Shown: in pieces, positions 13,302-63,694 of the stretch | Layout of the letters: each line of letters opens with the position of its first letter | Position numbering within the stretch: position 1 is the first letter of the stretch | Source: Amoebophrya sp. A120 | Taxonomy: Eukaryota > Protista > Dinoflagellata | Assembly (NCBI GenBank): GCA_905178155.1 | Contig: CAJINV010000002.1 | Span: 5,203,709 to 5,267,708 of the forward strand | Reading direction: 5' to 3' | Length of the DNA: 64,000 nucleotides | Made by a program: the position numbers and the translations under genes | Notes under the pieces: model-generated | What the model was told of the DNA's origin: nothing | Seen by the model: only the letters and a program-made list of their open reading frames with translations | Databases searched by the model: none

Positions 13302-16300
13302 ATGGAGGACTTCCGGCGGGGAAACTACAAGCGGCATCGCAGACGCAAGAAGGAGGGCACACTCTACTTCGGGGATGACGTTGGTGGAGACAACGATGCG
13401 AGAAAGACGATATTAGCAAGGTCCTTTTTACTAACTACGTTGCAAGAACTTCTGTTCTACCATTTTTGCTTCGTCGGGTCGTTCTTATCTTGTTCACCAA
13501 CCTTCTTGTTTTCAACATCCCTGGAGGTTCAGTTTTCCTCGGCGAAGAACCTAATCAGCAACGGGGGGTCGTCGAGGAGGAAACGCAGCAGTAGATCAAC
13601 ATCTGCGGATGAACAACTAGAACCGCCGAATCCGGCAGCGGGGAAGCTGAGTGCCTTCTTGGAAAAAAGGGAAGTAGCAAGCTTCTCGTCGCGAAGCGGG
13701 GTAGACGAAGATTTGTTTTTCAACCATACGACAACGTCTGATGCTGCAGCATCTACTTCCGGCGCGTTCGTGCAGGTGGGGCAAGGACAGCACCAGCGGC
13801 GCATCATGGTGAAGAAGGAACATCAAACGAAGAAAAATAAGGCCCAGAAGTTGGTAACCCTGGCGGCCAAGTTCGCCCTCCGGCGAACGGCAAACCAGCT
13901 GCAGAAACAGTTGCAGATCAAGGAACGAGTGGTAGATGCAGCGGTGACCTCGCCCGCCTTGATAGACAAGGTCTTGCCCCTCACCACGGAGCGGGTTTTC
14001 GGAATGCACCTCGGAAAAGAGTGGCTCAGCTTCTTCAAGAAATACTTTCCGGCGTTCGTGAAAATTCACCGAGAGATGATGGCACGCGAACAGAAAGAGC
14101 ACCAGTCTTCAAAACCTACAACCACCCCGAGGTCGACGTCCAAAACTGGTGCAAGAAAAAGCCCGGAGAATTACAAGAAAAAGAATCAGGAGCGGCAGCT
14201 GTCGCAAACGGAGGCTGACATTGAAGAATCGCTGGAACAAGGGCTGGCGAAATTTTTGAAGCATCGCCTGACCACAGGGCGCCGCGGGATCGTGGAGAGC
14301 ACCCGGCCCTCGGAGATGAAACCTGATTTGTTAGACTTGGCGCAGGAGAGGATGGAAACCGCTGCAGGCGTGTTCGACGCGACGGGGTTGGAGCGAATCT
14401 ACGAAAATCAAATTGTGGTGTTGCTAGACGCAACGACGGTCGCGTCAACCACTTTCCACCCCGGCGGTTTGTATGTGGTGGAAAAAATTTCATCCAGCGC
14501 CCCAAATAAACCGAAGAAACCGGGAGGTGGACGTCGACCCGTGTCTGGAAGCACGACCAATGTGAAGATGAAACCGACGCTGACGCTACGTCACTTGGAA
14601 CTGTCTTCCGATAAATGGTGGTTGGTTCCCAAAACAAGCAACGGAAATACAAAGGAGAAGGGGAACAAAACAACGACCGACGAGGACATGAACAACTACA
14701 CGTTGACGCTGTCTGCCACAGACGGTCCGTTGACCTGGCCGAACCGAGACTGGCATAACCGAACCACTGCTAGTCAGCTAATGGTGGTCAACGGCGCGGC
14801 ACTACGTGATCGCGCGGCGACGATCCGTCTTTACAGCGATCAAAAGATCTACGTTCCGACTTCAGCAGGGCGCCATTTGCTGTTTTCGTCCGAATCTTAT
14901 GCATTACAAAGATCGATCTGGGTCTGGTGAGTGGTAGGCACGTCGACAGCACGGCAAAAATAGTGAAATACGGAGCCAAGTATGAGAAATTTTTGGGCTC
15001 CTATAATGTATTGCGTATTTTATTTTCGCGTACCAAGCTGCGTTCTTTATCTTTTTGTATGACAGGCAAGATCACCATCACTTTGTTTTCCGATGCCTGC
15101 ACGCATCATGGAGCCCCCTCGACGAGTCATGTCAGACATGCATGAAGATGACAGAGTGTCTAGCAATCTTCCAGACCCAGTAGACATATTTGCAATCTCG
15201 ATAACAGTGACAAGATGTCTGCTTTTCGCTTTCCGGTCCGGGAAGCGCCGGATGTTCTCCCTAGTCTGCTCGACAAGATCGGCGTCCCCGGCTCCACTCG
15301 GGCGCTGCTATCCTGCGTAAAAGCGATGTCCCACCCTGTATTTGTGATGCAAGTCTGCACGCCAAAAATTTTTCGCATGCTGAGCCCCATGAGAAGCAAT
15401 TACTTGGGGTATTTTGGAACTCTTCATGCTCGAAGCAGGATGTTGAGCTGATCGAATCGCGATACATCGGAAGTTGCTAAACACGACGGCTACACTGGTG
15501 CCGTGAGCCCAAACTTGTCAACATGCGCAAGAACAGCCAAAAGTTTCGGACTTGTGTTGCACAATACCCAACATCTTCTTGACTCTGGATCAGGGGCGAC
15601 GTTGCTTTTACGCGGGATAGCTGCTGGAGGAGATTCTAGTTTTCGAGGAAGGTGGTGGAAAGCAGGATGCGAAAACTAAAGAAAAGCTTCTGGATGAGAT
15701 TGAAGAAAAACTGAAGAAATTTCTTCGTCAGCTGTTGCCCATGATGTTCTTTCCTGGGAAGACCTACCAGGAGCTGCACGCGGATCATGCAAGCGGTCAG
15801 GAAGATCTTCAACCTGTTGAAGAAACCAGTATTGTTCATCCTGGAGCCGTATCCTTTTTCCCTCTACAAGAGAGACTAGTGCTGGCGCCCGATTTTCTCC
15901 GAAGGAATGAAGAAAAAGCCCCCGGACCCAAAGCTGCGGTGCGGCGGAAGACGGATTACAGCCCGTTCCAATCTTTGAACGTCCACCACTATATTAAGCG
16001 AAATTTCGATCCAAGGCCCGGTTTCACGGACGAGACAGCGTTCTGGACGGAAATGCTGCACCGCTTTTTGTTTCCGTACATTCGCAAGCAGTTGCAGTTT
16101 GTGGACAAAGCATTGAAGAACGACACGAAAAATCGCCTGTCTATGCTGACGCTGCTTCAAGACCTGCCCACGACGATGCCGACGAAGGTGGGAACAAATG
16201 GTGCAGGTGCTACGGCTCCTGGGAGGTTGACAGCGCGTGCTGCACGGGGGCCCGGGCGAAAGAAGCGCGCGGGCCCGAGCGCGGGAGCCCGCAAAAATGG

Positions 16301-18396
16301 AGGTACCGGACCGAAGTCCTCCTACCTGCAGAACGCTGCACACCAGACCACTCGTGCTGTTGCGGACCAGAAGGCGACGAGGGGAGACGATTTCGCCCGT
16401 ACTGGTGGGCGATTTTTCCACCCTGCTAGCGCCAGCAACTACAACAACACTCTGGAGCTAGATGAAGCCGCTCTTGCTGCATATAATAACGAGGGACAAG
16501 ACGAAAAAGAAAACGATGGCGATGATGATGATGACGAACAAACCTCTTTCAGCAACATCCACGAGGAGAGTGGAAGAAGGTCGCATGAAATACTAAACGA
16601 TGTAGGACCACCAGCACGTCGAGGTGGTCCTCCTCCACCTCCCTCCTCTACTGCGCTTTTGGAGATAAAAACAAAAATGCAAACCACGAGGATGGAACAA
16701 GAACATCATCAAGCACAAGCTTCCGCTGCAGTGACGACGAGGAAGCTCGCGAAAACGGTGCGGACTGCGATGAAGGTTCAAAAATTGTTTGCCAACGCGA
16801 ACAAGATGAGGACCCCGTTGCACGAATCCTCCTTTTATTTCCAGCTGGCAAAGCAGTGGACAGAGTTGATGAAGGTCTACGGAACCGTGACGTCGACAGC
16901 TGAGCCGCAGCCTCGTCCGCCGAACACAGGGCGAAAAACGAACGGCGGAACATCAAGTAGGTCCTCCTTTTTGCAGAAAGTTCTTCTTCGCCACGACCCG
17001 CTGGTGAGTCCGCTGAATGCCAAGCCGAAGTGGCCCGGCGGCTCGGATAGCCGCACCGGGCCACAGGAGAGCAACCAGCTGACCAACCGAGCCTCCGTCA
17101 ACGATCCCAGCATGAATCCGTACCTGGAACGGCAGAAGGAAATGCTGCAATCGCCGTGGTTCATGGTGGCGCTGGTACTTGTCGTGGTGGTATGCACTGC
17201 AAATATCGATCTGGTCGGCCTGGAGAAATATACTTGTGATGCTAGTAGTCGTAGTGTAGTGTGGAAGGTAAGTGAACAGCCTTTCATCTTCGGAGCCACG
17301 TATGTTGACAAGTTTGTGTGCTGCCATGCCTTAATACGCGGGCCGCGTTTTTACGAGTTGTATCTTTGCATGACAAAGACAAAATTCGGTAGAGGAATGC
17401 ACAGCCCTTAAAGCCTTCGAACATAATGCGCATCTACTTGTCGGCCAAGCATGATGACAAATCCTGCTCTTTTCTCTCCCCAGATATGTTTGCAATCCAT
17501 AGGTGGTCGGGCTCGGTCTCGGTCTTCCAATCTCGCTCAGCATGGGAACGTACATGATACACCTTCTGCTGATGGTGAAAGGACACCTCGCTGCGCTCGG
17601 CGTGAAAGTCCTACACTTGGTGCCGGGCGTGAGCATTCCCTTCGTGATACCGTGTGGAAAGAGGTCGTCCCCGCACCAGAGTTGTTATGCAGATTCGCTG
17701 CGAATGCAATGCAAAGGACTTGTCATGTGCATCCCCATGACAGGCATTTTCAATCGTGTTTTGGGACTTCTGGTGCTGTAGACAGAATGAGAAAGCGGAT
17801 AGCTTTGTGATGCGGGTGTCCTTGCTGACCCGCATTAGAATGCAGAAAAATGAAACCTGATGTCATGCGTGACTCCCAAAGCCAGTGGATTTGTGCTGCA
17901 AGGAAATTCCCATCTTGACAACTATGGTGGGTGGGGACGTTTTTGCCTAGGATGCGCGATCTTGACGTCATTTCTAATCGTCTTCTTCGGAGGCCCGATC
18001 ATCATGACGGTGTTCGAGCGAGCATTCGTATGCATTGCACGTATGTCTGGGTCTAGAAGGTTGCAACTTGTCATGCTAAATCTGAAACATACAAAAATCA
18101 GTGTTGCGCGATTACCAAAAGCTGTCCACTTTTGACCACCAAGTTGAGAGGGAGGTTCTCATGCAGAATAGGGATAGGCATGATAGTGATAGAGACCCCA
18201 CAGAATCTGTCATGCTAGGTCCTGCATTCCAGACCTTATGGGTGATGGAAAGCCTGCTTGACAAGTCTTGCACTCTTCCAGACGCAGACATATTTGCAAT
18301 CCATAGCTCGCTGTTCCGAACGACGCCCGGACCTACGGTGCGGACCTACAGCACCCGGCGCAGGATAGGGATCGCCTGCCCGGAGGCCCCAAGTGA
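13302..18396 (+). CDS. Large predicted membrane/secretory protein with an N-terminal hydrophobic segment and several C-terminal TM helices, 5 introners
   Basis: ORFs 13302, 15215, 15735, 17503 and 17860 join in frame after removing each introner plus 5 bp. The product ends ...DRDRLPGGPK* at 18396. Confidence 0.7.
14898..15203. mobile_element. Introner, family A (degenerate)
   Basis: TAT...CTGGGTCTGG / CCAGACCCAG...GATA. Flanks aatct/acagt. Removal plus 5 bp gives SES-DKMSAF. Confidence 0.7.
15309..15619. mobile_element. Introner, family B
   Basis: TATCCTGCGTAAAAGC / GCTTTTACGCGGGATA. TSD gctgc. Restores RALL-EEIL. Confidence 0.9.
17191..17501. mobile_element. Introner, family A (degenerate)
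   Basis: TATGCACTGCAAATATC / GATATGTTTGCAATCCATA. TSD ggtgg. Restores the TM segment VVVV-GLGL. Confidence 0.85.
17648..17954. mobile_element. Introner, family B (degenerate)
   Basis: Flanks cgtga/cgcga. Restores PFV-ILTSF. Confidence 0.75.
18029..18305. mobile_element. Introner, family A
   Basis: TATGCATTGCACGTATGTCTGGGTCT / AGACGCAGACATATTTGCAATCCATA. Flanks attcg/gctcg. Confidence 0.8.
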
Positions 18397-19564: not shown

Positions 19565-22500
19565 GTGCACTCTCATAGAAGCCTCCCAAGGGGGACAACG
19601 ACAACGACGAGAACTGCTCGCCGCCCTCGTCGTTCCCGCGCCGGCTCTGGCTCTTGCACCTCTGAAGACATCATCTTCAAGGGTAGCTATTTTAAAGATA
19701 TCGCAGGCAGTTCAAGTTCTTTTTACAGCATGATGCCGAGGTATGCCTCGACGTCGACATCAACCTGCAGATTTATTCCTTCATCTTCTTTTTCCTCTAC
19801 GGCTTCAACATCTTCATCCGTGGTCTGCCTCTCCCCGGAGCAAATCCTCGACTCTTTGAGATACAAAGCAGGAACAAGCCCGACTCCGTCTTCATCGAGT
19901 AATATTAAAGCAACTACTCCGCGGCCATTCCCATTTCCTGTAGACAAAACGCGCATGGTGGTCTCCCGGACCGACGAACTGATCACCTTGACCAAGTTCG
20001 GTGCGGCGATCGATTTTCGGATATCGAAAGGAAAAATCCCCCCTCCCCATATCAAAACGAAATCTCTGATGCTGGATTTGTGTACACAAATCAGCTTTAT
20101 ATTGCAGGAAGGCATTGCGGCCAGATCCCCAGGCTATCGAGGGGCGTATCGGTCTAGTTGTTCGGCATGGCAAACGGCTGCCCTTTAGGCCCAACAGCAT
20201 GACAAAGTAGATACCTCCATGATAATGGGGGCGAAGCTTTTGCCCTTGTCTTCTTGCATAGACAAATGTGATTTGTGACCTCAAATCAGCAACGCAAATT
20301 TTCGGAAGCATGCCTTTTCAATATGGGGAGGGGGAGTTTTTCCTTTCAATATCGGAGGCAGAAGCTGGAAATCCCAAAGAAAATTTTGGACGACTTGGGT
20401 TTGCAGCTGCTCGCGGAAAAAGCAGACAAAGATGTTGAAGTAGAAGAGCAGCGGGAAGAAACAAGTAGAACTAGTGCCGAAGCAGTAGTACAGGAAGATG
20501 CTTCACTTAATATTTCTGCATCTTTCTCGTGTTGGTCACTGGAGAAGATCCTGCAGTGCCTGATTCTGTTCTCCCGAACGGGCTGTTTGTGCGTGCCGTT
20601 GTTCCGCAAGGGCATGTATTTTTTCCATCTGATCCTGCAGAGAAGTAGGACGACACTGGCCGCTGCTCCTCTCGTCCGCGAGGAGAACAGTTTCAGTTTA
20701 CAGCTCCGAATCGACCTCCTCACCGCCCTCGCGCGGCAGCGCGCCCGGATTCTCGTGCCGCATTTGGGGAGGACTTGGTTTGCGGGTTCCGCTTCTTCAT
20801 CTTCATCCGATGCTTGTACAACTTCTGGAATGAAGAGTATTGACACGACGACGATCTTCACTGCAGAGCAAGCCATGCAGGTCCTTCACTCTTGTGCGTA
20901 TCTGCGGCTGCCCTTACCCGAATGCGTGGAAAGCAGGATCGTCGAGGAAGCGGAGGTGATTTGTACTAGAAGGGGTGGTGCCGATTTTTTAAAACCTCAT
21001 TCAGTTGTCGACGCACCTGGTGGTCAAGATCAAGAAATAGCTGCGTCAGGAGGTGGACCTGCTCCGCAGGAACTACTACAACAAGACCTCGAGTTTCTCT
21101 TGCACGCCATGTACCACACAACCACGCTGTACCACGCCCAGGGCGAGATGGTGGATATACAGATGTGGGAAAAAGTGCCGACTGCTGGAACACCTGAAGC
21201 TGTTGATGCGGGACGAGCGTCACAAAAGTTCTCAAATCAAGCAACTGCAGTAAGAACATCGCATGAACGAACCACGACGAGGACATCAAACGAGAATCTT
21301 CCCGCTGCTCCCAGACTCTCAATCGAATACGTCTTCGGGCGGATTTTGCCAAAGTTTGCGGAGCTGTACATTACCATGGACAACAAGAACATTGACATTT
21401 CATCTAATGGAAATAACGAAACCAATTCAACAAATTCTGCAGAGAAGACGAGGAGGGGAGAACCACCACCACCAGCAAGTACTTCTCCGCCGTCGAAGTC
21501 CTTCCTCCAGAAGGCGTCCGTGCTCCGGAGCGTGTGCTATCAAAAGTAAAAATCCCCCCTCCCCATATCGAAAAGGTATGTTTCCGAAAATTTGTCTTGC
21601 TGATTTGAGGTCGCAAATCACATTTGTCTTGCAAGAAGACAAGGGCAGAAGCTTCCGCCCCACTGTGGAAGCGATTTGTCATGCTGTTGGCCCTAAAAGT
21701 GAGCCGCTTGCCATGCTGAACAACTAGACCCATACGCCCCTACCAAGCCTGGGGATCTGGCCGCAGTGCTTCTCTGCAATACAAACCTGATTTGCGTACA
21801 CAAATCCAGCATGAGAAATTCCGTTTTGATATGGGGAGGGGGGATTTTTCCGTTTGATATGTGCCGCTACTTGCACAAGGGGGCTGTGGAACTATTGAAT
21901 ACGGCGGAGGAACAAAATATCAAATGTAAAAATGTCTGGGTCTGGAAACTTGTGATGCTGTGTGGCGTATCATGAGGAGGCGACAATTGCTGGCTCAGCA
22001 TGACAAGTTTCTGAGCTTCTAGGTGTTGCCTATTCTGCATGACAAACTACGTTTCTGCATGACAGAAAAGTGGGGCTCTTTGGTAATGTGCATGACAGAT
22101 TTAAGAGTCATGCCAGACAAGCATGACAAACTTGCATTCTTCCAGACCCAGACATTTTTACATTTGATACAAAAGGTGATCGCAAAATGCCTCCGCAAGA
22201 TCCACGAAGACTACCAGGACTGCCGAATCAGTATGGAGGAAGAGATTTTTTACCGCGATAGGAGAGAAGATAAACAGGTTCGTCATGCAGCTGCCGCCCA
22301 AGATTTTTTGTCTGACAATGCTACAACACGTACAACAGCAGCAGGACCAGGAGCACCAGAAGCTCCCTCGTCCTTTGACCAGGAACACCACGACTGCCAA
22401 GAAGTACCCCCCGCAGAGAAGAAGCCGATCCCCCGGTTTCTCGAGACTGTGTCGTGGTCTCTGACAAAACTCCGCATCGCGCACTCGACGGAGGTCGAGC

Positions 22501-24902: not shown

Positions 24903-26643
24903 ATGTCGGGCCCCCGCCAATACACACAAGATCCGGCCGAAATGTTTGTCGGCAATCTTGTGAAAGACAGTACTTTTTCTACATTTCATTTTTTTTTTTC
25001 TATTGGTATACTGCGTATATCTAAGTGAATCCATAGAAACAACTACTTATCACAAAAAATAAATGAAGGGATCATTTAGATTCCTGCTGCAGCGATCGCG
25101 ATGTTGAATTTCAAGTTTTGACATACGGCCCCCACCAAACAACACCACAGACGAGGTCCACTCGACGAAGGCGCTGAGGACGTTTTTCGAACAATTCGGA
25201 CCGGTGAAAGATGTCGACGTGAAGAAGGACCGCAACGGCCTTGGCAAGGGCTTTGCCTTCGTCCAGTTCGAAGACTCCAGTTCGGTGGACACCGTCCTCC
25301 AAACGTACGACAACAATTACCTGGGTGGCGTGTGGCTCGACTGCAAAAAGTCTGTGGACCGCTCGCAGCGGGCTCCGCCGAAGGGCGGCCACCCGCCGGC
25401 CCCCGCGCCGCCACCGCGACGTGGGGGACAGGGAACTGCGGATCGGGGAGCAGGTACTAGATTTTTGTTTATTTTAGGTAGATGGACTTTAACTTCTTAG
25501 ATCTATGAAAAGACGGACAAATCGAAGCCAGATGTTGACTTCCCCATTATACTGCCTTTCCTGACCGTATAGACGGCCTGCAAAAACAGCCCAAGAACTT
25601 GTTTGCGCTAGCAAATCTCCTCGGCGTAATTTCGATCGATTTTACTATTCCGGATTCTTTCTACTTTAGAGAAATACACAACGGGATCATGTTGGAAACA
25701 TGGGATGAACCGAACTCAGGTAAAGGAGGCAACCGGGGTGGCGACGGTAGTCGTGCGAAGGGTGGCAGCGTCGCAAATGGCCGCGGTGGTGCTGCTTTCC
25801 CGACGCAGAAGACGCAGAACATGAACATTTTGGAAAAGGTTGCGGCCCAGCAGCAAAACATGGGTGGCGGCAACAACTTGGCGCAGCAGCAACAGCAAAA
25901 CACCCAGCACGCGCAGAAGTTCTTGCAGCAGAATGCGGCGGGCAATCCCGGGCAGGCGGGCAGCATGATTGTCAGCGTGCCCCTGCCGGGCGGCGGCTTT
26001 CTGCAGTACATGCCGATTCAGCCCTATGACGGCTCCGGCGTGATCCGACCGGCCATGCCCGGCTGGTTCGGGGAAATTAGGAACCAGCAGGTGGCAGGCG
26101 GTGGTGGTGTACAACAAAATATGATGCAGCAGAACAATATCATGCAGCAACAGCAACCACAGCAGCCCACCATGTCTATGCAGCAGCGGATGATGCAGGT
26201 ACAGCAGAACAACCTGATGCAGCAGCAAACTATGCAAAATGGGATGTGGAACCTATCCCGTGTGAAAAAATGGACCCACCCCCTTTTCGAGACAAAAATT
26301 CAAATCATGCAAGACAAATCCAGGCTTATGCACTGCAGTCGCGCCCTGGTAGTACAGCCACATCAGAAAGAACCGGCCGTGTCATTCATAATCCTGCTAA
26401 GAGCACGACAAAGGATAAATTTTCAACAAAGTTCTGAGCTGTAAGAGAGACGTTCCAGGCGGCATGCCGATTTGAATGACAGATATGGGCGGGGGTCGTT
26501 TTTCCACAGGATAGAACCCCGCGAACCTCGACCCCGAAGACATCGAGCTGAACGCCTCCCTTGGCCTGACCCCGGGCGGCAAGCCAATAGAGGACACCGC
26601 ACCGGCCAATCCCTTCGCCGTGTCAAGACCCGGGCCGTATTGA
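24903..26643 (+). CDS. hnRNP-like single-RRM protein with Gly/Gln-rich tail and C-terminal PY motif
   Basis: RNP2 MFVGNL and RNP1 KGFAFVQF. Introns at ~24960-25128 and 25454-25671, introner at 26254-26513. Ends SRPGPY*. Confidence 0.8.
26254..26513. mobile_element. Introner, family D
   Basis: TATCCCGTGTGAAAAAATGGACCC / GGGTCGTTTTTCCACAGGATA. TSD gaacc. Confidence 0.88.
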
Positions 26644-47342: not shown

Positions 47343-50300
47343 GCGGGTTATAGCGTTATTGAGGACATTCTGAACGGCACGGATTTACTGTCCGCTAGCG
47401 CAAGCAGTTCTTCGTCGTCCGCAACTACCCTTTTTCCAAATAACACCACGTCGAGGAACAACAAGACCTCCGCACAGGAGTCGCATCCTCGTAGTTCGGG
47501 TTCGACGAGGAAGACCCACCTACAACACGAAGACCCGCCCGGAAACGACCACGAGAACCACGGGCACAAGAACGAGTACGATAGGCATCCGCTTCCTGCG
47601 CGCGAAATCAAGAGGGTAAACATCGGGATTAACCCTTTGATTACAGCAGGAGCTACTACTTCGTCCACGGCCGCGTCCGCGAGCAGAAGTGCCGGTGCAC
47701 TAGACCAGGAGTATGCGCAAGCCTCGACGTCGACAAGAAGCGCGTCCTCTTTTCTGGCAGCGGTGGAGAGGGAAACAAGAAGCGTGAAGGAAACGAGAAG
47801 CATGTATCAAATGTAAAAATGTCTGGGTCTGGAAACTTGTGATGCTGGGTGACGTCTCATGATGAGGCCACAAGTGCTGGCTCAGCATGACAAGTTTCTG
47901 AGCTGCTAGGTGTTGCCTATTCTGCATGACAGACTGCGTTTCTGCATCACAGAAAAATGGAGCTCTCGGGTAGCGTGCATGACAGATTTAAGAGTCATGC
48001 CAGACAAGCATGGCAAACATGCATTCTTCCAGTCCCAGACATTTTTGCACTTGATACGGTGGAGAGGGAAACGAGAAGCATGAAGGAGGAGTTCATTCTG
48101 CCAAGAACAGGGTAACAGAAAACCTTGACGTGACCGGGGAGGTCACGTCCACCCGGCCGGCCGGGCGGACCGTGACCGGGGGTAGACCATGTCCCGCGGC
48201 TGCTATCCGGGCGCGGGCTGCGCCAGATGTTAGTTTTATTTGGTGCGCGGAGCAGAGCCGCTCCGACTCCACCCGCAGTGCCTATAATCGAAAGCCTGGG
48301 TGGGCCTCAGGCTCCTGCAAAGTAGCTGGCGTTGCGGGGGCGGATTTTATTTATGCAGTAGCTACTGTAGCGAGACACCGCTGGCAACCGCTCGAAACAC
48401 CCCGCCCACCCACCAGAAAACGGGCTGGTGGTAGGAATGCATCGCGCGGCACCTTGGGCCAAAAGTGTCGAAGGTGCAGACTTCGTGGCGCTACCACTTG
48501 GATCCGCCTGAGCTCGGACGAAGCGCCGCATATTGAGACCTGTGGCTCTCAGGTGCTGTGACCTGAACCCTAGCACTGAACGACTTTGGCTCAAGGTACA
48601 GCGCCACGACCTCCTGGCGCCCCCATGCCCTTTTCACTCTTCGCGCAAAGGGTGAAAAGGGACCGGGGGTGGGAAGTCACGGCGCTGTGCATTGAGCCCA
48701 AAATGTCGCGACGCAGACTTCGCGTCTTTGCCAAGTTCATATGTCCGCGTCAATATCATGCAGCAGGCCCATGGTCATCAGCAGATCGGATGCGTTGTAT
48801 ATTGAGCCCAGAGCGAAGTCGTGGCTCCGAGGTTTAGTGAGCCGCATTCTACCACTGGACGACTTTGGCTCAAAGCACATTGCGGCGACTCCATTCTCCC
48901 AATCCCTTTTCACCCTTCGTGCGCGCGAGGGGTAAAAAGAGACGAAGGGTAGCAAGTCACTGCTTCTTGTACTTGTTGCAGCAGGTCCATTTCTATGGGC
49001 ATGCGCTCGCGCTCGGGCGCATTAAGTACATATTAAGGCCTGGGACTCCAAGGTGCACCGAGGTGCATTCTGCCAGTGCACGACTTTGGCTCAAGGTGCA
49101 GTGCCGTCACCTCCTACCCCCACGAGCGACTGGCTCCAGGATGTGGGTCGACCAGGGACAACCCCCGGTCACGGTCCGGCCGGCCGGGCGGACGTGACCG
49201 GCCCGGTCACGTCGAGATTCTATGTTAGCTTATTCTGGCAGCGGTGGAGAGGGAAACGAGAAGTATGAAGGAAGAGTTCATTTTGCCGAGTATCTTCCTG
49301 TGTAAAACCGTAGTCCCCACGTCTGGGGGCCCAAAAATTGCGGCTCTCCGGCTGGGAAAATCCAGAGGCTTTTAGGACTTTTACATGACGATTTTGATCA
49401 TGGGCGCGCAGTGTAGTTGTTTTTGCGTAGCTTGACTTCGTTTACATGACCATGGCAGCATCTTCGCGACAAATCCAATTTCTCATGGTGACGTTGTGGA
49501 TTTATTGCATGAAGAAAATGTCAATGAGTCATCTCTACTCTGCATGAACATTAGTGCGGGTACTTCCCCGCGCAGCGCCGGACGTCGTTTTTACACGCGA
49601 TACAGACGCCCCCACGAATATGGAAGCGTCAGGATCGAAATCGTCAAAGTTGAAATGATTTGCCATGCATAAAATGGATGCCAGTTGTAACCCAGCTTCA
49701 TCCAAGTGGCGCATGACAAATCTGGGTAGATCCGAAATCCAGTTTGTCATGTTGTTTGGGTAAGGAAGACGCCTTTTGTCATGCTACTTCAGCAGCGCTA
49801 TTTCTACCCCTCAACAGGCTTACAATCCGCCTCCCTTGCCTACTCTGCAAGACAGGCACTTTGTGGGCTGCATTTTATGCATGACAAAGCATTTCAACTT
49901 TGACGATTTCAATCCTGACACATCCATGACGAATTCGCGTGATTCCACCGCAGGAGGACACTGCCCCGTCGTCTAGGGATGATCACCTTCGCCAAGAAGG
50001 TGAAAAGTCGTTTCTGTGGAAGTTTGGACTGGGGGAAGCAGAAGATAATGTGACTCGTCGTGACGACGCCGAGGACGCGCAACACAACGCTGTGAAACAA
50101 GAAAAAAAATCGCAGGTGGAAAAAATGGAATCGATATCAAGTTCCCTCTTCAAGGCTACAACTAGCTCTTCTAGCAAAAACAGTACCACCTCCACGTCTA
50201 CGGCAAGAACTGCGGCGCCTGCGTCTGCCGCTCCGAGTGCGTTTTCTAGCAAGAGTACAACGACGGAGCAAGTCATTGTACCAGGGGTAGAGCAAGAACG

Positions 50301-53300
50301 ACCAGATCAGGAGCAGGTCAAACTGCAAAAAAGCAGGATCGGAGCACTTTTTACCTCGGATAACAGGGAAACAACAACAAAATCGTGCTTCCCGTCTGCC
50401 TCGTCTGCGGAAGCGGTCTATGTTGATGAAAACAAGCAGCCAAGCAACGGTTCTTCGTTGTTGAAGCAGTCGACTGAAAGAGCTGATGTCCAGCCTTCGC
50501 CGCCCCTGAAATTTTCGCAAATGAAGCACCAAATCGCAACGCCCTCTCCCGCGGTCGTCATCGCTTCGCCGCCCAGCTCGGCAGAACGGGCCGGGAGTAC
50601 TAGCGAAGTTGTGGTAGAGGAGAAGAATGATCCTGGTGTTTTTGTACCACCGGTCAGGATGGGTTTAATGGTGGATGAACCAAGGACCTCCGATCTTCGA
50701 AACCCAACTCGAGTTCCGGCAGGACAAGCCGGCACTTCCTTCAGCACGACGGCAAAGAACACTGAGGTGGTGAACGAGAAAAGCTACACGGGGCGGTGGA
50801 AACTTCTGGAACCACGAAAAAACGAGGCAGGTCGACCTTTGGAGGAAGAAGAGAATATTACTAACGCGAGTGGATTTCTTGAAGTAGAGAAGACCGGCTT
50901 GCAACTGCTGAAGGAAAAATTCCTGGGGAAGAACGATGGCGAAGATAAGAACAGTTGGACTGCTAGACAGGAACAAGTGTTGATTGGAATGAATCATGAC
51001 GACATCGGCGACCAACCAGGAGCCGCTCCTGCGTCCAATAACTGGTCCGTTTCTGTCTTGAACCAAAGCCAGCAGTCAATATCCGCGACCGCGGTTTCCA
51101 CGAACACAACGCCTCGTATTGCTGCGGCTGTTGCTGGCTTCGACCCCACGCCCCGGAGCAGCAGTTCTTGTTCTTTCATGTCGACGAGCCAAAATTACAA
51201 CATCGGAGCAGGAGGTACAACTTCATCGTCCAGGACAAAAAAAAACTCTACTGCCGCCTCCCAGCTGGATCCGCAGTTGCTCAACCTTGCGCATCCGGAG
51301 TTGATCCGGAAACTGGATAAAGCGAATCACCTGAACATCCAGCTGCAGAAGGACTTGAAGAAGCTGCTCGACAAACACGTCAAGGTCAAGGAAGAAAACG
51401 GCTCGCTGAGTTCCAAGCTGCAGAAGGAAAAGCACAGCTGGAACCTGCTCGATCACGAGCTGGAAGTAGTAAAACGGCAGCTGCTACCCCTGAAAAAGAA
51501 GAACCAGCAGCTCACCGAGGAAGCAGATTTGTACTTTGAGGGCCTGTTGAAATTGTTGTTTCTCCATTCCCCGCCCGAGATTCTCCAAATAGCCGAAGAG
51601 CAGCCGATGATTGGCGGAACGCCACCACCAAACACAACGTCGCTGACGACCCGAGCGGCTGGATCGGGATCGCCTCAACAAGCTGGTGGTGCGAACAAGC
51701 AAGAGAAGCATAAAAATCCTGTTGACAACTACCCTTGTCTAGGACTACGCACAGGGAAGACTTCTACTGTGCCGGCCTCTCCAGGGGACAGTACAGCAAA
51801 GGGACGTCGACCAGGATCATCTTCGTCTTCTGGTACCTCCACGCCTCTGCAAAGTGAGCAAAAGTACGGAGGCGGCGCCGAGCGATACGACGCGAACGGA
51901 GCAGTAGCTGCAGCGTCACCGTCCTCCGCCACGACATCACACCCACAGCATCTACTTTATCTTCCCGAAGCGCTGCAGAATCGACGGCAAAAATCTGCGT
52001 TCATGATCCAGGCACTGCACCAGAAGAAACTCCGGCTCCACTGGCTCCGGAGCGGGTTTCCGCAGATTTGGAAAAACAGGAGGAAAACTTCTACCAATGA
52101 CGGCATAATTGGAAGAGGTCAGAACAATACTACATCTACATCAACTTCCGGAGGAGGTAAGAATACTAGCTCTACTGGAAGTGCTGTCAACTTCTACCCC
52201 CCGTCGGCACTGTCACTGACTCCGCGACGGAGCAAAAGGCAGCATGGTGGTATTCAAGAAAAAAACACCATCACAATCACTTTTGCACATTTTTGCAATA
52301 CAAAAATTTTTGTCATGCGCAAAAATGCATCACAGTCAAGGGCTATAGGCGAGTTCCCTTTGTGTCTTTGCAAGACAAGAAAAATTTGTCATGCGAGACG
52401 ATGCAAAACCTCCTAAGTGTGCTTGTGATGGTGTTTTTTTCTTGGATAGGTGGACAGCAACATTTTCAAGGGGACCACGACCAGGATGTAGTTTTTTCAA
52501 AAAGTGCACTGGAGCTGCGAGAGTTTCACGAGGACGACGACTCCGTCTCTTACAGCTGGATTGATCCTGCCTCCGACGAGTTGAAGGTGGAGCTGCTGTC
52601 TACCGAGCTTCTGAAGCAGAAAAACGAGTACGAGTTGCTGAAGAAGAATTACTATCCTGTGCAAAAGTATCGCACTCGTACTAATCGCAAATATGCATGA
52701 CAAATATTTTTCCTAGGGAAAAAGAGCATTACAAATTTCACTTTCCTTCTTGCCAAAATTTGTCATGCAGTTTATACTAGTGCGATACTTTTGCAATGCA
52801 TAGTTACCAGCTGGCGCTCCTGGAGGTCAGCAAATTGAAGGACCAGGTGCAGGAGCTGAAGGGCAACGTCCGGGTGTTTTGTCGGCTGCTATCAAATGTA
52901 AAAATGTCTGGGTCTGGAAGAATGCAACTTGTGATGCTGCATTTGGATTCAAAAAAAATCTGTATTGCATGAGTACCAACGGGAATGCAATTTTTGCTAC
53001 GCTGAGAAGGCATTTGTCATGCGGAATAGGCATCAAGAAGCCCTCAGAAAATCTGTATTACTAGGGTACGCATCACAGACATCATGGCTCATGCAAAACG
53101 TGCATGACAAATGTCAGAATCTTCCAGACCCAGACATTTTTACAGTTGTTAGCTGCTCCCACTAAACAATCTTCATCCATCTGGTGGTTCGGACCGCACT
53201 TTTTTACTAGGGGACGCCACGGCAAGTCAAAATCACGGCATGTCAGCAGTGCGACCAAAAAATGAGGAACCGGGCGGCGGTACTGGAGCATCGGGGACAG

Positions 53301-56300
53301 GGGGTAAGGTTATACTTTTGTCGACGATGAACTCGAACGACACTTGCGAGATGAGTTGTTCTTCCTCTGTGTTGTATGTACACAAATAGGTGGGTGTTGA
53401 TACTGTGACAGGAGAAAACAAGTGTGCCCGCGATACTACATGAATGATAAATGAGTCTGCATGTCCGCACGGTGCGGGCAGTGAAGCTTGTGAAAAAAGA
53501 CTTTAACTACGAGTTTTCTTGTGATCAGGTGGTCACCGCCGGCTGAGCAGTTTAGTTTTGCGTAGCGGGGACAATTTTGGTGGACGGGAAGTGGAATTTG
53601 CCTTCGATCGAGTCTTTGGGCAGAAGGACACACAGGCGACGATCTACGAGGAGGTGGGGCCGCTGCTCGAGGGGATTCCGAGAGGGTACTTAGTTGGTAC
53701 TTTCACTTACTATGTACTTGCAAGACGATTGATGTATGATGCGCAGTTTGCAGTTTGCACACAAAACTACAGCATGGCGACGCTCTTCATGAAGAATATC
53801 TTTTCGAAGGAGACAGAAGCAACAGGGTGCAAAGACAGCTAGACTCCACTTAAATCCAGGTTCCACCTTGCGATTTTTGCTTACGGCCAAACGGGCAGCG
53901 GGAAAACGTACACCCTGGACGGCACGCAGGAGCAGCCGGGCATTCTGCGATCGGCTCTGCAGGACATGCTGAAAATCGCCGATAGCAAAGGTTATCAGCT
54001 GGTTTTGTCCATCGTGGAGATCTACAACGAGCAGGTGCGGGACTTGCTCGAGCCTCCCAAATCCGCGGCCTCATCTTCGACTTATTTTCATGCCGACTAC
54101 GATTTCGTGGTTCCCGACCGGACCTACAATAATTTCAACGGCACGACCAATCAGTCGCCCAGCAAGAACATTCTAGGGTCCGCACGGACCAACGCGTCCT
54201 CCGTCTCGCCGCGTAAGCCGCGCGGCGCTACAGGCGGGTCCTCCTCAAATTTTCACACCAAGCCACAGTCGAGCGCGCGAAAGCGCGGCCGGAATCTGTC
54301 GGATTTTGGGGCGGCGGGTGGTGGTGGCACTTCTTCGACGGCGGGAGGGAGCGTGTCTGTGTCTCCCCGCAAGGCACCGACGGAGACGACCACGCAGAGA
54401 AGTGGTCGAGGAGGTGGAGGACAGCACAATAATCTTCACCCTTACAACAATTACGGTGCGCAGAATAACAACAACTACAACACCACCGGTACTACTTTTA
54501 CTAATACTAATATGGCGGGGTCAGGATCGGGGTCGGCGTCTTCGAGCACGGCGCATAATTTTGGAACGAGCAACAGCGGCGTTTCCTCGTCGTCCTCCCG
54601 GAGCGTGACCCCCCGAGGCAATAATTCTCATGCAGGGACTGCCGGTAATTGCACGAGCACGGCAAGTTCCGGACCGGGTTCAGGGGCTGGAGGCAGCACG
54701 GCCGCGGCCGCTTTTCCGCCGAGCGCAGCGGCGCCAAGCACCACGAATGCAAACAGCGCTTTTTTGAACCAGTCCTTCCAATCCACCAGTAGCATCCGAT
54801 CGGTCAGCAGCAGTGCTACGACCTCCGGGCAACATCAGAATTACGCCAGCCAGCACCTGGAGATCCGGGGGGTGACCAATCACGGTGTTGCTGCGAGCAC
54901 GGGTTGTACCGGGCCCGTCAACTTGGTGGATCATGGCGCAGGTGGAGGGGTTTCTTCCGGTCGGGGAGCAGCTGTCGAGCGGGATCAGCACAGTGAGCTG
55001 TACCACTCCTCTTCCGCAGGCTCTTATGCAAGGAAGAAAGAGTTTTACATACAGTTCGAACTAGAAGGCATGTGTTGCAGGACAAAGCGACGAGTATGAG
55101 ACAGACAACCTCTGTCATGCCCGCATAATCTTTGAATCGTTGCGTTTTCTTCCGACTGCTTCTTGTCCCAGTCGCACGGACCAGGACTCTATTGCTAAAT
55201 CAGTAGCACCAGACTGGAAGGAGAACTGTATGTAAAGTCACTTTTTTTCTCGGATGCTTCTTCTTCTAGTAGTGGCCACCACCACCACCCTTCGGATTTT
55301 ACAACCTCGCTGTTCGGCATATGGCGTTCTCAACTGTTACATCCTCAACTGTTACATGGATTTGTGTTGCAAGAAGTGCAACAGTGAAATAGGAGACCTT
55401 GCGCTTCTTGCATGACAGATTTGGCAAAGATTCTCAGCCTGTTGGGCTCGTCGGGAATTTGTCATGCGAAGCAGCTTGATTGCGTCGATTCTGAATCTGA
55501 GTGCAATTTTGCATGACAAATCATGTAACAGTTGAGAATGTAACATTTGAGAACGCCATTCGGTAGCATCTACGTGGACGGGCTGTCTACGGTAAAAATC
55601 CACTCCTGGGAGCACGCCGACCGGATCTTGCAGCGGGCGCGGCAGTATCAACTGCAAAAATGTCTGGGTCTGGAAGGATGCGAACCTGTGATGCGCATTT
55701 CACATACACAGACAAATCTCTCTCATACATCACACAACAAAAGACGTGCATTTCCTGTCACCAAAGATTTGTCATGCACATTAAGCAATTGCAATGCGGA
55801 AGCTTCTCGAATAAATCTGTGATGCTAGGGCTTCCATGACAGACATTCTGTGTCGTGCAAAAACAGCATGACTCTTCGAGACCCAGACATTTTTGCACTT
55901 GATAGGCAGAGCCGCGTGACCGGCGCCACGGCGCTGAATGACGTGAGCTCGCGATCCCACTGCATCTACTCGCTCGGTCTGCGGTATCCTACAGAAAAGT
56001 ACCTAAACCCGTATCAGAAAAAAATGGATTTGTGTTCGCTAAACTGCCGGCACTTAAACCCTCGTAATGCGGAGACCACAAATAAAGAGGCTGCTTTCTG
56101 TCGTGCAGAATGCAGCTGCCGGCAGTGTGTGCTGTCTAATGCAGTCGACAGTGTGTGCATGTGCTGTGTAAAAAGTAGGTATGATCAAAGAGTAGATGGC
56201 GTCGCTTTTGCTTAGCATTCTGCGCAGCCAAGTCCTGTCTGTGACACGAAATAAATCCCCGCAGCACAAATCTTCTTTTTTCTGGCGTGCTGGGCTTGCC

Positions 56301-56750
56301 TTTCTGTGGGATATGCGCACCAAGAGCGGCGCGGCAGTGCCGTCCTCCGGAGTACAACCAGGCAAGACGAGCAACTCTGACCCTCAGTCGTGCAGCGTCG
56401 AGCAGTACGTGGGCGCGCTGCACGTGATTGACCTGGCGGGGTCGGAGCGCACCAAGGTCTCGAAGGCGGAGGGCCAACGGATGCAGGAAGCCAAACAGAT
56501 CAACAAGTCCCTGTCCGCCCTGGGCGACACGCTCTTCGCACTCGAAGCGAAGCACGCGCACATCCCCTTCCGGAACAGCAAGCTGAGTTACCTGTTGTCG
56601 GACGTGCTGTCACAACAATGGTCGAAGGTTCTCTTCATTGCCACAGTGAATCCGTCCATGGAAAACGTTCAGGAAAGCTTCTCCACGCTGTCCTTCGCGC
56701 GGAGGATCGCAAACATCGAGAAGGGGAAGCTCAAAGCCAATAGCTCGTGA
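47343..56750 (+). CDS. Kinesin-14 family C-terminal motor protein (5' end unresolved), 10 introners, one large TIR insertion and canonical introns
   Basis: Neck ELKGNVRVFCR, FAFDRVF, P-loop AYGQTGSGKTYT, VEIYNEQVRDLL, switch I NDVSSRSH, switch II DLAGSER, INKSLSALG, HIPFRNSKL. Confidence 0.9.
47805..48056. mobile_element. Introner, family A (252 bp, very similar to 21918..22169)
   Basis: Family A TIRs. Followed by a ~26-bp exon duplication instead of a 5-bp TSD. Confidence 0.9.
48106..49232. mobile_element. ~1.13-kb non-coding TIR (foldback/MITE-like) element with ~80-bp GC-rich TIRs
   Basis: Left ...GACGTGACCGGGGAGGTCACGTCCACCCGGCCGGCCGG..., right is the reverse complement. Flanked by a ~55-bp exon duplication. 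Internal repeats CGACTTTGGCTCAA. Confidence 0.85.
49291..49602. mobile_element. Introner, family B/D-like
   Basis: TATCTTCCTGTGTAAAAC / GTTTTTACACGCGATA. Flanks ccgag/cagac. Frame restored. Confidence 0.75.
49619..49928. mobile_element. Introner, family G
   Basis: TSD acgaa. Confidence 0.9.
52251..52448. mobile_element. Introner, family K
   Basis: TATTCAAGAAAAAAACACCATCACAA / TTGTGATGGTGTTTTTTTCTTGGATA. TSD ggtgg. Confidence 0.92.
52653..52802. mobile_element. Introner, family I (150 bp)
   Basis: TAT...TGCAAAAGTATCGCACT / AGTGCGATACTTTTGCA...ATA. Flanks attac/gttac. Confidence 0.88.
52890..53151. mobile_element. Introner, family A
   Basis: TSD gctgc. Sits immediately after VRVFCRL. Confidence 0.92.
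55025..55256. mobile_element. Introner, family L
   Basis: ...TTTACATACAGTTC / GAACTGTATGTAAA.... Flanks gctct/cttct. Frame restored. Confidence 0.75.
55320..55560. mobile_element. Introner, family M
   Basis: TATGGCGTTCTCAACTGTTACAT / ATGTAACATTTGAGAACGCCATT, with an internally duplicated TIR unit. Flanks cggca/cggta. Confidence 0.88.
55646..55904. mobile_element. Introner, family A
   Basis: TSD ggcag. Restores RARQ-SRVTGAT. Confidence 0.93.
55985..56313. mobile_element. Introner, family E
   Basis: TATCCTACAGAAAAG / CTTTCTGTGGGATA. Flanks tgcgg/tgcgc. Confidence 0.85.
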
Positions 56751-58847: not shown

Positions 58848-60116
58848 ATGGACGTCGAAAAGAGTTTCTCCGCATCGCATCGCGAGCTGCCTGTAGTGTC
58901 TGCACCGCCCTTACCCATAGTCTACGACCCAATTACGCAAACGACGGGAAGGTTGCCCACCTATCGACCGTTCGTCGAAAAGAAGCAACTGGACTTGTTT
59001 CATCGGCCGAGAAACCTCAAATTCAACGAAAACAGCCTTTTCGTCTGCTATTGGAGGAAAGCGTTGAGTCAAAATACGTAAAGATGACAAAAAGATGTGC
59101 AGCACCAGCAGTGAAGCATTCATTTCGGCGCAGGTAACCATTAGTTGCTGCCGTAGTACCTAGACTACGGTGAGTGCGGAAATCTACTTACTCAATGGTT
59201 GTAACTTCTCCTTGCACGAGCACGAGGGAAAGATGTTTACGAAGGATGCACGAGACGATCATTCACATTTTCATGTGGAGAAAAAGGCTGATTACATCTA
59301 TCTTGCTTCGACTCAACTGTTCACTCCAATACGCACAACGGCTGTGACCTGCCACTCTACCACTGGCTTGACTTTGACTTGTACCAGAGCGAGAAACAAG
59401 GGTATTGCGTTTTCGACCCGTTAAGCCTCTATTCGAAGGGAAAGTTTTTCTACCATGTTGGGCTGAAAATACAAGAGGCACAGGATCATGGACGTTGTGC
59501 AGCTACAACGTCCCCCCCCAAACTCAATTACGTCGTCCGCCTGCATTGCAAGCGCTGCGAATCGTATTTGGGCTGGGTGCAGGAGAAGAGTGACGCCGAA
59601 AAAAAGTTGGAGCTGGACGACCTGAAGGAAATTCGGCACCGCACCTGGCACGTGCTCAACGCCCTCGCCATCAGGCACGTGCGAGCTGCTGGCTCCTGTG
59701 GGGGAATCAATACTAAAGATTACATCAACGCGGCTGATCAACATATGAATTCTTGTGGGCAACAAGAGCGGTCTAATATTAGTGCTGGTTGCACCTATAA
59801 CAAGGCGCCTTCGTCATCGTCGGAGATGGCAAAAACAAGAACTACAGAAGCTGCACGTACTAGAATAGGGAAAACATCATCAACACAGCCTCAGGAAGAA
59901 GAAGACCTGCAGGCCCTTTATGATGCACCGGGGTCGATTTTTCGAGAGCTATTGGTGACCACGGGAACAATCTCAACGGAAAGTACAAGCGGAGGACGGG
60001 AGATGAAGACGGTCGGACGAAAAATTGGGATGAATTACGTTGTCGGAGCTGGAGACACTATACTGCAACGTGCGAAGCTCGAGCTGGATGCGGATTGTAG
60101 GGTCCTGCGGTGGTGA
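58848..60116 (+). CDS. Hypothetical protein with CxxC..LGW motif (possible Yippee/Mis18-type zinc-binding fold), probably two exons
   Basis: LHCKRCESYLGWV in ORF 59379. Upstream ORF 58848 is a plausible first exon. Confidence 0.4.
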
Positions 60117-61028: not shown

Positions 61029-63694
61029 GTGACCGAAGAGAAATCGAGAACTTGGAATGCAGTGCCAACAATGAACTACGCAGAAGAAGGAGTGCAACAT
61101 CAAGAGCAGCCGCCTGAGCAGGAGACGCGACGGTGGGTGGCGAACATCAGAACTACCTGCCCGGCGGAGGGTGACAACGCGCATCCAACAGCTGTTGACC
61201 ATAAGCACGTGCGGAAAAGTGACACTACCAAAGTTGTGAAGCTTCTTTTTGGAGGACCGCACCCGGATGTAGTTGCACCCTCTCCTGCTTCGCGAACTAT
61301 GAATTCTGATTCTCAACGTCCCTCTGCTGGACGAGATCAAAATCAGACGATGCCCGCCCCGGCGACCCGACCACGACACAAAAACGGCTCCAACAGCAGC
61401 ACCTGCAGCGCGAGTAGCTTCAAAAGTGCGGCGACCGGTGGTCCCCAGGGGCCGCTTGGTTCTTCTTGGTCCTCAAGGGAGAGGCCGGGCGGACAACACG
61501 GATTTGCAACGACGAGCTCCAACTCCGATCATGCAGCTGTCAACGTGCTGGGAGCAGGAGTCGCACGGCAGTCCTCCACGAGCGGCAAAACAAGCCTCGC
61601 GGGTGGAGTATCGGCAAGTCCAGCACCAGCTCGGCGTCTGATCCGCGACACCTACCCACTAAAGGAGCAGGAGGAGTTATGGTGAGCAAAAACGTCCCCA
61701 CCCCAGAGTCAAGATGGGAAATCTGCTACACAAATCCCCTGGCTTCGGCTGCTGCGCATGACAAATTTGGGCTCGCAATGTAGTCGCGTTTAGCTCCTAG
61801 TGCAGCAGCGTCACAGTTCTAGCATACCATGCGGATTTGAGCATTACAAACCTCAAAGTACCAATAGAGACTGCTTCGCATGGGTCTCCGCATGAGAAAC
61901 ATTTTCAGCATGCAGATTTGCATTGCAATTCTGGAGTGGGGTCGTTTTTACAAATGATAGGAGTTTGATTGTAAATACAAGATTACCGACACGGAGGACG
62001 AAGAGGACGAGGAGACCGTTCTCCTCGCCTCCAATATGGAAGTGTCAGAATCGAAATCGACAAAGTTGAAATAACTTGTAATGCATAAAATGGATGAAAG
62101 TTGTGGCCCAGTTTGTAACTGGCGCATGACAAATTTGGGTAGAACCGAAACCAAGTTTGTCATGCTGTTTGGGTAAGGAAGACGCCTTTTGTCATGCTAC
62201 TTTAGCAGCTCAGTTTCTACCCCTCAACAGGCTTACTATCTGCCTCACTTGCCTACGCTGCAAGACAGGCACTTCGAGGGCTGCACTTTATGCATGGCAA
62301 ACTATTTCAACTTTGACGATTTCAAACCTGACACTCCCATATCCAAGTGGCGAGACCTGCCGAAAAAGCTAGCCTCCAAGCGTTTTCTCGGGCGAGCTCC
62401 TGAGGGCGAGCAAGACGACGCAGGATCATACGGCCAGGAGGAGAATGAATCCGGCACGCGGCGATCCTTACTTGGCCAACTGTTTCTGAACTTCGCAACC
62501 GGAAAACCGTATCGAATGTGACAAAAGTAGTGTCTTTCTATTCCCGCTCTTTGCTAGTATCCACACCTTGTTGTCCGCTCGTTTTTTGCATATTGGACGG
62601 TAATAAATCTACTTCGTGCAGCAAGAATATAATGGTCAATGTGCTATTAATGTGCATGATGAAGACGTGCGTCGTATTAAAAATAGTCTCGTTATTCATC
62701 ACGATCGTACTCCTGTGCCTTTTCTCCTTGAGCGGAGTAAGAAAAGAAAGTGAGCAGGGCAACTGCAAGAATGAGCATTTTGTCACCCAGGATATGCGAG
62801 AAAATTCCACGAGCACGACGTCGACGTCCACTTCTTCGCATGCGACGGATCGCCATCGGGGACCACAGAAGGGCAGGAAGCAGCACCAGCGCCAACAGCA
62901 GAGCTCGACTAGTGCCACCACGTGCACTAGTTCCTCTGACCGCGGCGATACGGGCAGCAGCAGCAAGACCACGCTGGTGTCCGTGTCCAACTCTACGCCT
63001 CCTTCGACCGAGCGAAGCCCGCGGAGTAGCGGAACGACGGCGAGTCTCAAGTTATCTTTCGTGTGCATAACTGGTGATGTCGTTGCAGTCATCTCTTGCT
63101 CATCAATGTAGACAAAATAAACAGCTGTTGAAGAAGTAGATTTTTTGCACTGGATCCTTGGCGGACAGAAAAAACCTACAACTTGTTGGATTTCTATAAG
63201 ACCACACCAGCGCGGTGTATAAATGAAAAAAGAGAAAATAAAGGTTTCTCATATATCTTTCTCACGTATAACCTCTTTGTCATACGGCAATTTCGACCGA
63301 GGTGTCCTTCCGACATCACCATGCTTTTTGCACCCCATAACAACACCCGCTCGACAGCGGCAATGATATGTGGAGCCTCCTGTCCCCACGCCCTTGCACT
63401 TCCTCCCGCTCGCTCTCCAAGCACGGCGAGGATGAGGTTCTTTTTTGGCATGGTGACCCGCTGCACGTCAATTCTTCCGACTCGACGGGGCCGCGTGGCG
63501 GTGTTATCTGGTCGCGGGCGCTATACGGGGTGGCCAAAACGCTCCTCGTCGCCGCTTTGCTCCTGGGTGGGTGCCTCTTGGTCTGGAAAGTCGCGAACAA
63601 ATGGGCTCAGGTTCGATTTGGATCAACTATTTGGGTTTCCTATGAATGTAGATTTACCCATATTACCCTTACCCGCCGAATGTTTTGCTTGTAG
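61029..63694 (+). CDS. Low-complexity protein with a TM helix, 4 introners (3' end uncertain, may continue to the window end)
   Basis: ORFs 61029, 62189, 62518 (3' part) and 63368 join in frame. TM segment LLVAALLLGGCLLVW. Confidence 0.6.
61678..61959. mobile_element. Introner, family B
   Basis: TSD ggagt. Confidence 0.9.
62035..62341. mobile_element. Introner, family G
   Basis: TSD tccaa. Confidence 0.92.
62510..62794. mobile_element. Introner (degenerate)
   Basis: TATCGAATGTGACAAAA / TTTTGTCACCCAGGATA. The TSD is lost, but removal plus 5 bp restores KP-ENSTS. Confidence 0.65.
63053..63339. mobile_element. Introner (degenerate)
   Basis: TAT...TGGTGATGTCG / CGACATCACCA...ATA. Removal plus 5 bp joins to ORF 63368. 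Confidence 0.6.

Follow-up and report, generated by a model that had tools for sequence, protein, structure and literature searches.

One register for the removal of transposon-derived introns from RNA in a 64-kb stretch of the Amoebophrya sp. A120 genome

The DNA analysed here, a stretch of 64,000 nucleotides designated the window, is part of contig CAJINV010000002.1 of the dinoflagellate Amoebophrya sp. A120 (assembly GCA_905178155.1, positions 5,203,709 to 5,267,708), and it raises the question of how genes interrupted by dozens of short inverted-repeat elements can give rise to intact proteins. The elements are introners that have already been published for this organism; in the window they are removed from RNA together with five flanking nucleotides at a single register, the cuts lying one nucleotide before and four nucleotides after the element, and the cutting is probably performed by the major spliceosome of the host in a relaxed form without a need for GT-AG ends. 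For A120, 29,850 introner copies in 1954 families have been reported, which resemble miniature inverted-repeat transposable elements (MITEs) and whose removal is supported by RNA-seq, and more than 60% of the introns of this strain are non-canonical (Farhat 2021, PMC7789003). Their inverted repeats consist of TAT, 7 nt and three or more A residues, the direct repeats measure 3-5 nt, with a 5-bp example in Fig S19, and the families were described as strain-specific (A25 vs A120). The splice sites were presented as variable relative to the hairpin, with an unknown border (Fig 3 legend), and S23 gives 1-5 nt. The elements of the window agree with this description in the organism, the TAT-N7-A-run ends, the direct repeats of 3-5 nt, the repeated nature and the removal outside the GT-AG rule. 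Two exons of the window matched annotated A120 proteins, with exon blocks identical to the window, and the assignment to the Amoebophrya introners by the first-pass annotation, which was made from the letters of the DNA, was correct.

The elements with TAT..ATA ends in a 5-bp target site duplication (TSD) are real and far above chance. A strict scan (TAT..ATA ends, perfect 5-bp TSD, score of the terminal inverted repeats (TIRs) of at least 9) yielded 23 elements, compared to 0-1 per shuffle in 30 block shuffles. A loose TIR scan from which the TSD condition was dropped did not exceed chance (118 hits kept, compared to 103 raw hits in the shuffle) and was used for the proposal of candidates only. 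When relaxed scans, joints in the RNA and manual curation were added, 54 candidates resulted between positions 14898 and 63339 (Table 1), with a median length of 282 bp and a joint share of 33% of the window. Strict TAT..ATA ends are present in 44 of these, a perfect 5-bp duplication in 28, the duplication being decayed in the remainder, so that the first-pass annotation overstated the duplications when it assigned them to nearly all elements. It assumed 12 or more families with unrelated TIRs; 31 BLAST clusters were obtained among 52 elements tested (6 with several members, which occur in both orientations). The TIRs follow a common pattern, with TAT in 50/52 elements and, in 34-45 of these 52, A at positions 11-15, and an internal GCATGAC motif is found in 87/155 elements; the families are therefore less unrelated than assumed. 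The elements are short, carry TIRs, have a fixed TSD length of 5 and lack coding capacity, which are the hallmarks of MITEs, and non-autonomous DNA-transposon introners of the MITE type are the best explanation for them. No match was obtained in Rfam, and none in viral contigs for the commonest TIR. At 28189-28295, a TAT..ATA stretch of 107 bp, whose 5-bp duplication is perfect but whose TIR is weak, is possibly an old introner and was not counted.

Deletion of an element plus five nucleotides (element+5) had been proposed to rejoin the fragments of open reading frames (ORFs), and this deletion gave the longest ORF in seven of nine gene regions when compared with +4, +6 and +0 (in one example 1615 aa vs 330, 535 and 326 aa, respectively); there was one tie, and one ORF was shorter with element+5. 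Removal at the RNA level was analysed by comparing RNA-type contigs of run X1, whose RNA identity is a guess, with positions 31501-51400 and 51501-63600. Since the X1 contigs also skip the GT-AG introns, and do so within the same records as the elements, they behave as complementary DNA. Among the 41 candidates in the compared stretches, 33 were removed, one (42674-43405, probably a mis-call or located in a 3' untranslated region) was read through, and seven were uncovered or had a joint outside those listed. The RNA joints listed correspond to element+5, and the length accounting is exact, with 898/898 nt for a group of 12 elements, 81/81 for two and 211/211 for four. In the second stretch, where repeats of the DNA runs dominated the list of joints, junctions were taken from the piece table and the length accounting; X1 contigs reach no junction in the region 57-63.6 kb. 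Of 13 elements outside the compared stretches, eight fit element+5 in database proteins. At the DNA level, the elements 55025, 55985 and 59049 are intact in X5 contigs at a single-copy depth of ~42-43. These data support the earlier proposal of one removal rule that acts across families, and they indicate that the elements are not excised from the DNA. The kinesin, RAP and RRM domains of the genes said to be interrupted are present in the window, and the RNA-tested junctions among these belong to the kinesin gene.

A perfect duplication cannot place the cut, but a decayed one can, and the position is expressed here as k, the number of bases of the left duplicate that are kept. Informative junctions numbered 17, in four genes that all lie on the plus strand; RNA contigs supplied 11 of these junctions and database proteins six, and for several of them, k was derived from the piece ends under the assumptions of leftmost placement by the aligning tool and of element+5. 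All 17 junctions are compatible with k=4, whereas the other values fit fewer, namely 11 for k=5, 10 for k=3, eight for k=2, four for k=1 (the mirror image) and two for k=0. If k were random, the chance of 17/17 at k=4 would be ~1e-5, and 1e-3 for the RNA set alone. The cut is thus located 1 nt before TAT and 4 nt after ATA, and the intron has the form N-TAT...ATA-NNNN. The register appears to follow the transcribed strand and operates in either orientation of the element. As the mRNA retains four nucleotides of the left and one nucleotide of the right duplicate, exactly one copy of the target is left and the protein is unchanged. Element 39424, whose flanks have no matching base, is also removed at k=4, which identifies the direct repeat as a relic of insertion rather than a splicing signal. 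In the nested pair 32568/32875, a single joint (32562->33096) was found, which fits two successive k=4 cuts and suggests stepwise removal. In the raw RNA runs X9 and X10, more than 300 reads per run join the left arm of the 34607/41172 family (34618-34642, 41243-41267) to foreign flanks; these reads stem from a copy of the element that an abundant transcript of another locus or strain has kept. Micro-exons of 10 nt (39150-39159) and 11 nt (49607-49617) between neighbouring introners are present in the RNA contig.

The same elements exist beyond A120. A 30-nt TIR matched at least 136 stretches in a metagenome collection, from which 134 loci with 557 kb were analysed. One protein encoded there is 81% identical to its A120 counterpart, which indicates a related, Amoebophrya-like genome carrying the same families, and the exact 30-nt TIR ends that it has in common with A120 qualify the published view of strain-specific families. 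In this relative, a flush 5-bp duplication was present in 265/456 TIR pairs, compared to eight with 3 bp, two with 4 bp and two with 6 bp. A codon model, which replaced a stop-free-frame test without power, framed 24 of 162 elements confidently, and 23 of these 24 require that the nucleotides removed in addition to the element number 2 mod 3. The common ends, the TSD length and the internal motif fit a single mobilising enzyme, as had been suggested before: an integrase-like DDE transposase, or a small number of related enzymes, would bind the TAT-N7-A-run ends and the GCATGAC motif and produce a 5-bp staggered cut, from which the 5-bp duplication would result. Neither a transposase nor a long autonomous copy was detected in the window or in the 557 kb of the relative, whose long ORFs were not scanned against Pfam; of five long TIR pairs considered as autonomous elements, those in the loci inspected turned out to be ends of separate copies or internal repeats. 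The A120 families are mostly TIR DNA elements according to Gozashti 2025 (PMC12130899), which describes family fam38 as Ginger-like, with homology of the integrase-like kind and the entry "5-bp TSD, TA/TA Termini", and states for many A120 families that they "co-opt both" splice sites. The IS3EU/GingerRoot elements (Kojima and Bao 2023, PMC10045372) likewise have TA..TA termini and an integrase-related DDE transposase, but they usually generate a 6-bp TSD, in contrast to the 5 bp of the window elements, for which no transposase was found.

With respect to the machinery, we favour a relaxed spliceosome that reads the terminal sequence of the element, which we consider likely, over a non-spliceosomal enzyme, although this attribution is inferred. 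In the proposed mechanism, the TAT of the element would occupy +2 to +4 in the 5' splice site of the host, position +1 being free; the seven GT-AG introns located all begin with GTA, and five of them with GTAY. The 3' site would be set by its distance from the T-run, N7 and ATA that close the element itself, possibly aided by the hairpin and without the need for an AG. Both splice sites would then be supplied by the symmetrical ends, so that any insertion would be neutralised and new families could spread through exons. The first T of the TIR, which in transcript orientation is position +2 of the intron, is invariant (0/157 changes), whereas the mirrored base at the 3' end is changed in 10/157 (Fisher p=0.002), and TAC occurs six times at the 5' end while its mirror image GTA does not occur at the 3' end. 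In Table S4 of Farhat 2021 (PMC7789003), 9/9 predominant non-canonical motifs of A120 have T at +2, and the same study reports a near-complete spliceosome in which U1 small nuclear RNA (snRNA) was undetected.

Several observations weigh against this interpretation. The +2 position was chosen from seven positions tested, the relative alone gives 0 vs 4 changes among 104, the changes at the 3' base mostly yield G, so that U-G pairing could also explain them, and the pattern in Table S4 may reflect a bias of the aligner. The elements do not have the GT/GC...AG ends of U2 introns: G at +1 is not enriched (40/114 vs a background of 31%, p=0.36), nor is AG at -2/-1 (11/114, p=0.49), and the GT..AG found in 2/54 candidates at the true register (37425..37690 and 41172..41365) is due to chance. 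A branch-point motif oriented with the transcript was not found, GCATGAC having been rejected in this role because it shows no strand asymmetry. The RNA evidence consists of assembled contigs from one sample, the raw RNA runs X8-X10 do not cover these genes (which has no bearing on their expression), the annotated proteins or gene models may derive from the same RNA, and none of the 97 ORFs of the window contains a transposase domain.

The strongest competitor, which we regard as unlikely, accepts the elements and the register and assigns the cutting to a non-spliceosomal, structure-measuring endonuclease and a ligase, as proposed for euglenids, which would cut 1 nt upstream of the base of the TIR stem and 4 nt downstream of it. 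It gains from the absence of G at +1, of a 3' AG and of an oriented branch motif, from the undetected U1 snRNA, from the strong terminal stems predicted for the five elements folded and from the euglenid introns, which show a similarly lopsided stem geometry and leave as circles (PMC11282704). However, selection for an RNA hairpin was not found, G-U pairs not being in excess of A-C mismatches in the transcript-oriented TIRs (63 vs 56), and the earlier designation of the process as structure-guided is not supported by this test. Moreover, TIR positions 4-10 are often unpaired, a weak stem, as in element 41411, does not prevent the cut at k=4, the bias of TAC over GTA favours sequence over pairing, and the match of +2U/+3A/+4Y to the 5' sites of the host needs no new enzyme. 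The nonconventional introns of euglenids are characterised by CAG at +4..6 pairing with CTG at -8..-6, by a pyrimidine/purine border and by circular products, while the MITE introns of Fritillaria mostly have AG-AC or AG-AT ends and are removed via the U2 spliceosome (PMC11282704). Both have TIR and TSD in common with the window elements, as well as borders that are non-canonical and a cut at a constant distance from the stem; the window elements differ in leaving +1 and the last four bases free, and with their TAT/ATA ends and free flanking bases they lack the pairing and the borders of the euglenid type.

It is improbable that the splicing is spliceosomal with a register that is not universal, several transposases and splice-site choices coexisting and the agreement within the window being local. 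The A120 rows of Gozashti 2025 (PMC12130899), of which 38 of 58 were covered, show mixed TSD lengths and splice-site usage within a family and no single rule, and the informative junctions in the window number only 17, from four genes on one strand; yet these published per-family values rest on annotated borders inside ambiguous repeats. The 17 junctions agree across mostly unrelated clusters, and the 5-bp TSD is dominant in the relative. Strong hairpins with flanking direct repeats are a classic substrate for template switching by reverse transcriptase, and the elements resemble this substrate, so that false introns could have been produced during reverse transcription; a literature search gave no paper joining all of these terms. 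We consider this very unlikely, because removal is independent of the duplication, persisting at TSDs of 0/5 to 3/5 with a single offset, and because whole transcripts lose all elements, by which proteins of 1185-1576 aa are restored. The TAY ends recall those of the internal eliminated sequences of ciliates, but programmed excision from DNA is the least likely reading, since the 1/4 offset is lopsided along the direction of transcription although the elements lie in both orientations, and since the X5 contigs carry three elements intact, with the proviso that contigs drop rare variants and minor stages would escape view.

The long ORFs of the region lie mostly on the plus strand, as do all tested genes. 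The GT-AG introns 36312-36528 and 53686-53859 have common GTACTTAG starts and AAAT(AT)CCAG ends and may constitute another, older type of repeated intron. At 48127-49213, a GC-rich element of 1087 bp, whose long inverted ends differ from those of the TAT..ATA type, is probably intronic, as the RNA depth over it is near zero; on either side of it lies one of two near-identical copies of a short exon-like stretch (~48057-48108 and 49240-49290), possibly alternative exons. A palindromic repeat of 20-33 nt with a AAAAGCTGCCT core forms a cluster of many copies in both orientations at 2314-3275, and at 9960-10134 there is a pair of short hairpins (79 and 43 bp), both perfect, that have a GAGTTCTCATCC motif in common.

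Table 1 Introners, candidates and host genes of the window. TSD n/5, matching bases of the duplication; k, compatible register values; element+5, removal of the element and five nucleotides
Positions	Strand	Feature	Observation
13302..18393	+	Host gene, match to database protein P0005 (1185 aa)	5 introners
14898..15203		Introner	TSD 2/5; database protein permits k=2,4,5
15309..15619		Introner	Perfect TSD; element+5 fits protein
17191..17501		Introner	Perfect TSD; element+5 fits protein
17648..17954		Introner	TAC..ATG ends; TSD 4/5; k=3-8
18029..18305		Introner	TSD 3/5; k=2-5
20022..20351		Putative introner, RAP-domain gene	Perfect TSD
21538..21859		Putative introner, RAP-domain gene	Perfect TSD
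21918..22169		Putative introner, most abundant family	Perfect TSD
26254..26513		Putative introner, downstream of RRM exon	Perfect TSD
27538..27798		Putative introner	Perfect TSD
29019..42013	+	Host gene, A120 protein P0004 (1576 aa)	25 introners; GT-AG introns 30138-30285, 31368-31598, 36312-36528
29256..29537		Introner	Perfect TSD; element+5 fits A120 protein
30501..30775		Introner	TSD 2/5; k=4-6
30884..31258		Introner	TAT..ATG; element+5 fits protein
32034..32305		Introner	RNA skip 277 = element+5
32568..32873		Outer introner, nested pair	Joint 32562->33096
32875..33091		Inner introner, across 3' end of 32568 element	Two-step removal inferred
33157..33423		Introner	RNA skip element+5
33938..34565		Introner, 628 bp	RNA skip element+5
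34607..34783		Introner	RNA skip element+5
34954..35362		Introner	TAC..ATA; RNA skip element+5
35453..35651		Introner	TAT..ATG; RNA skip element+5
35699..35914		Introner	TSD 4/5; k=0-4
35966..36272		Introner	TSD 3/5; k=4-6
37198..37397		Introner	TSD 3/5; k=4-5
37425..37690		Introner	Chance GT..AG at k=4
37766..38034		Introner	RNA skip element+5
38140..38461		Introner	Removed (length accounting, protein)
38701..39145		Introner, precedes 10-nt micro-exon	TSD 3/5; k=3-4
39161..39387		Introner, follows 10-nt micro-exon	TSD 3/5; k=4-5
39424..39879		Introner	TSD 0/5; annotated protein fits k=4 only
40027..40308		Introner	Perfect TSD; removed
40362..40640		Introner	Perfect TSD; removed
40687..41006		Introner	TAC..ATA; TSD 4/5; k at least 1; orientation opposite to family member 38140
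41172..41365		Introner	Chance GT..AG at k=4
41411..41766		Introner	TAT..AAA; TSD 2/5; k=4
42674..43405		Doubtful candidate	RNA contig (piece 41771-42936) reads through left end
44683..44903		Introner	RNA skip element+5
45012..45250		Introner	TSD 3/5; k=3-5
47071..47352		Introner candidate	TSD 3/5
47805..48056		Putative introner	92% identical to 21918 element; TSD 2/5
49291..49602		Introner	TSD 3/5; k=2-4
49619..49928		Introner	TAT..ATG; removed
49930..56750	+	Kinesin gene body	7 introners; GT-AG introns 53304-53528, 53686-53859
52251..52448		Introner, kinesin gene	RNA skip element+5
52653..52802		Introner	TSD 4/5; k=1-5
52890..53151		Introner	TAT..TTA; removed (81-nt accounting)
55025..55256		Introner	TAT..ATG; TSD 3/5; k at least 2; intact copy in DNA contig
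55320..55560		Introner	TAT..ATT; TSD 4/5; removed (211-nt accounting)
55646..55904		Introner	Perfect TSD; removed (211-nt accounting)
55985..56313		Introner	TSD 4/5; k=0-4; intact copy in DNA contig
59049..59331		Introner candidate	TSD 1/5; intact copy in DNA contig
61678..61959		Putative introner	Perfect TSD
62035..62341		Putative introner	Perfect TSD
62510..62794		Old introner candidate	Decayed TSD
63053..63339		Old introner candidate	Uncertain borders

The feature is real and already known, and the novelty claimed for it by the first-pass annotation was too high, as the TAT ends and the 5-bp repeat appear in Farhat 2021 (PMC7789003) and a 5-bp TSD with TA/TA termini is given for fam38 in Gozashti 2025 (PMC12130899); the 1/4 register had escaped that annotation. 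What is added to the published work is the exact register, its independence from the duplication and the constraint on the +2 U, and the nested pair is a further difference from the description of 2021. The register is not stated in the available text of PMC7789003, PMC12130899, PMC11282704, PMC9860276, PMC12005148 and PMC12787238 or in the results of literature searches, although parts of it may appear in the figures of Farhat 2021.

With a single register, borders regarded as "variable, unknown" become a defined substrate, N-UAY...AUA-NNNN, that makes no use of G at +1 or of a 3' AG. On this basis, tens of thousands of introns can be re-annotated correctly and splicing without U1 can be tested directly. 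It also explains how a transposon fills a third of the window without harm to the proteins. More tentatively, and with more doubt than belief, one may extend this to most introns of A120, which would be removed by a machine in which neither terminal dinucleotide plays a part and the ends of the transposon set the distances (1 nt before TAT, 4 nt after ATA); it would be either a spliceosome that lacks U1 and has rewired contacts at its catalytic site or an independent system for cutting and ligation. If this is true, any insertion by one transposase that duplicates 5 bp would be silent, even into the 3' site of another intron, the two then being removed stepwise.

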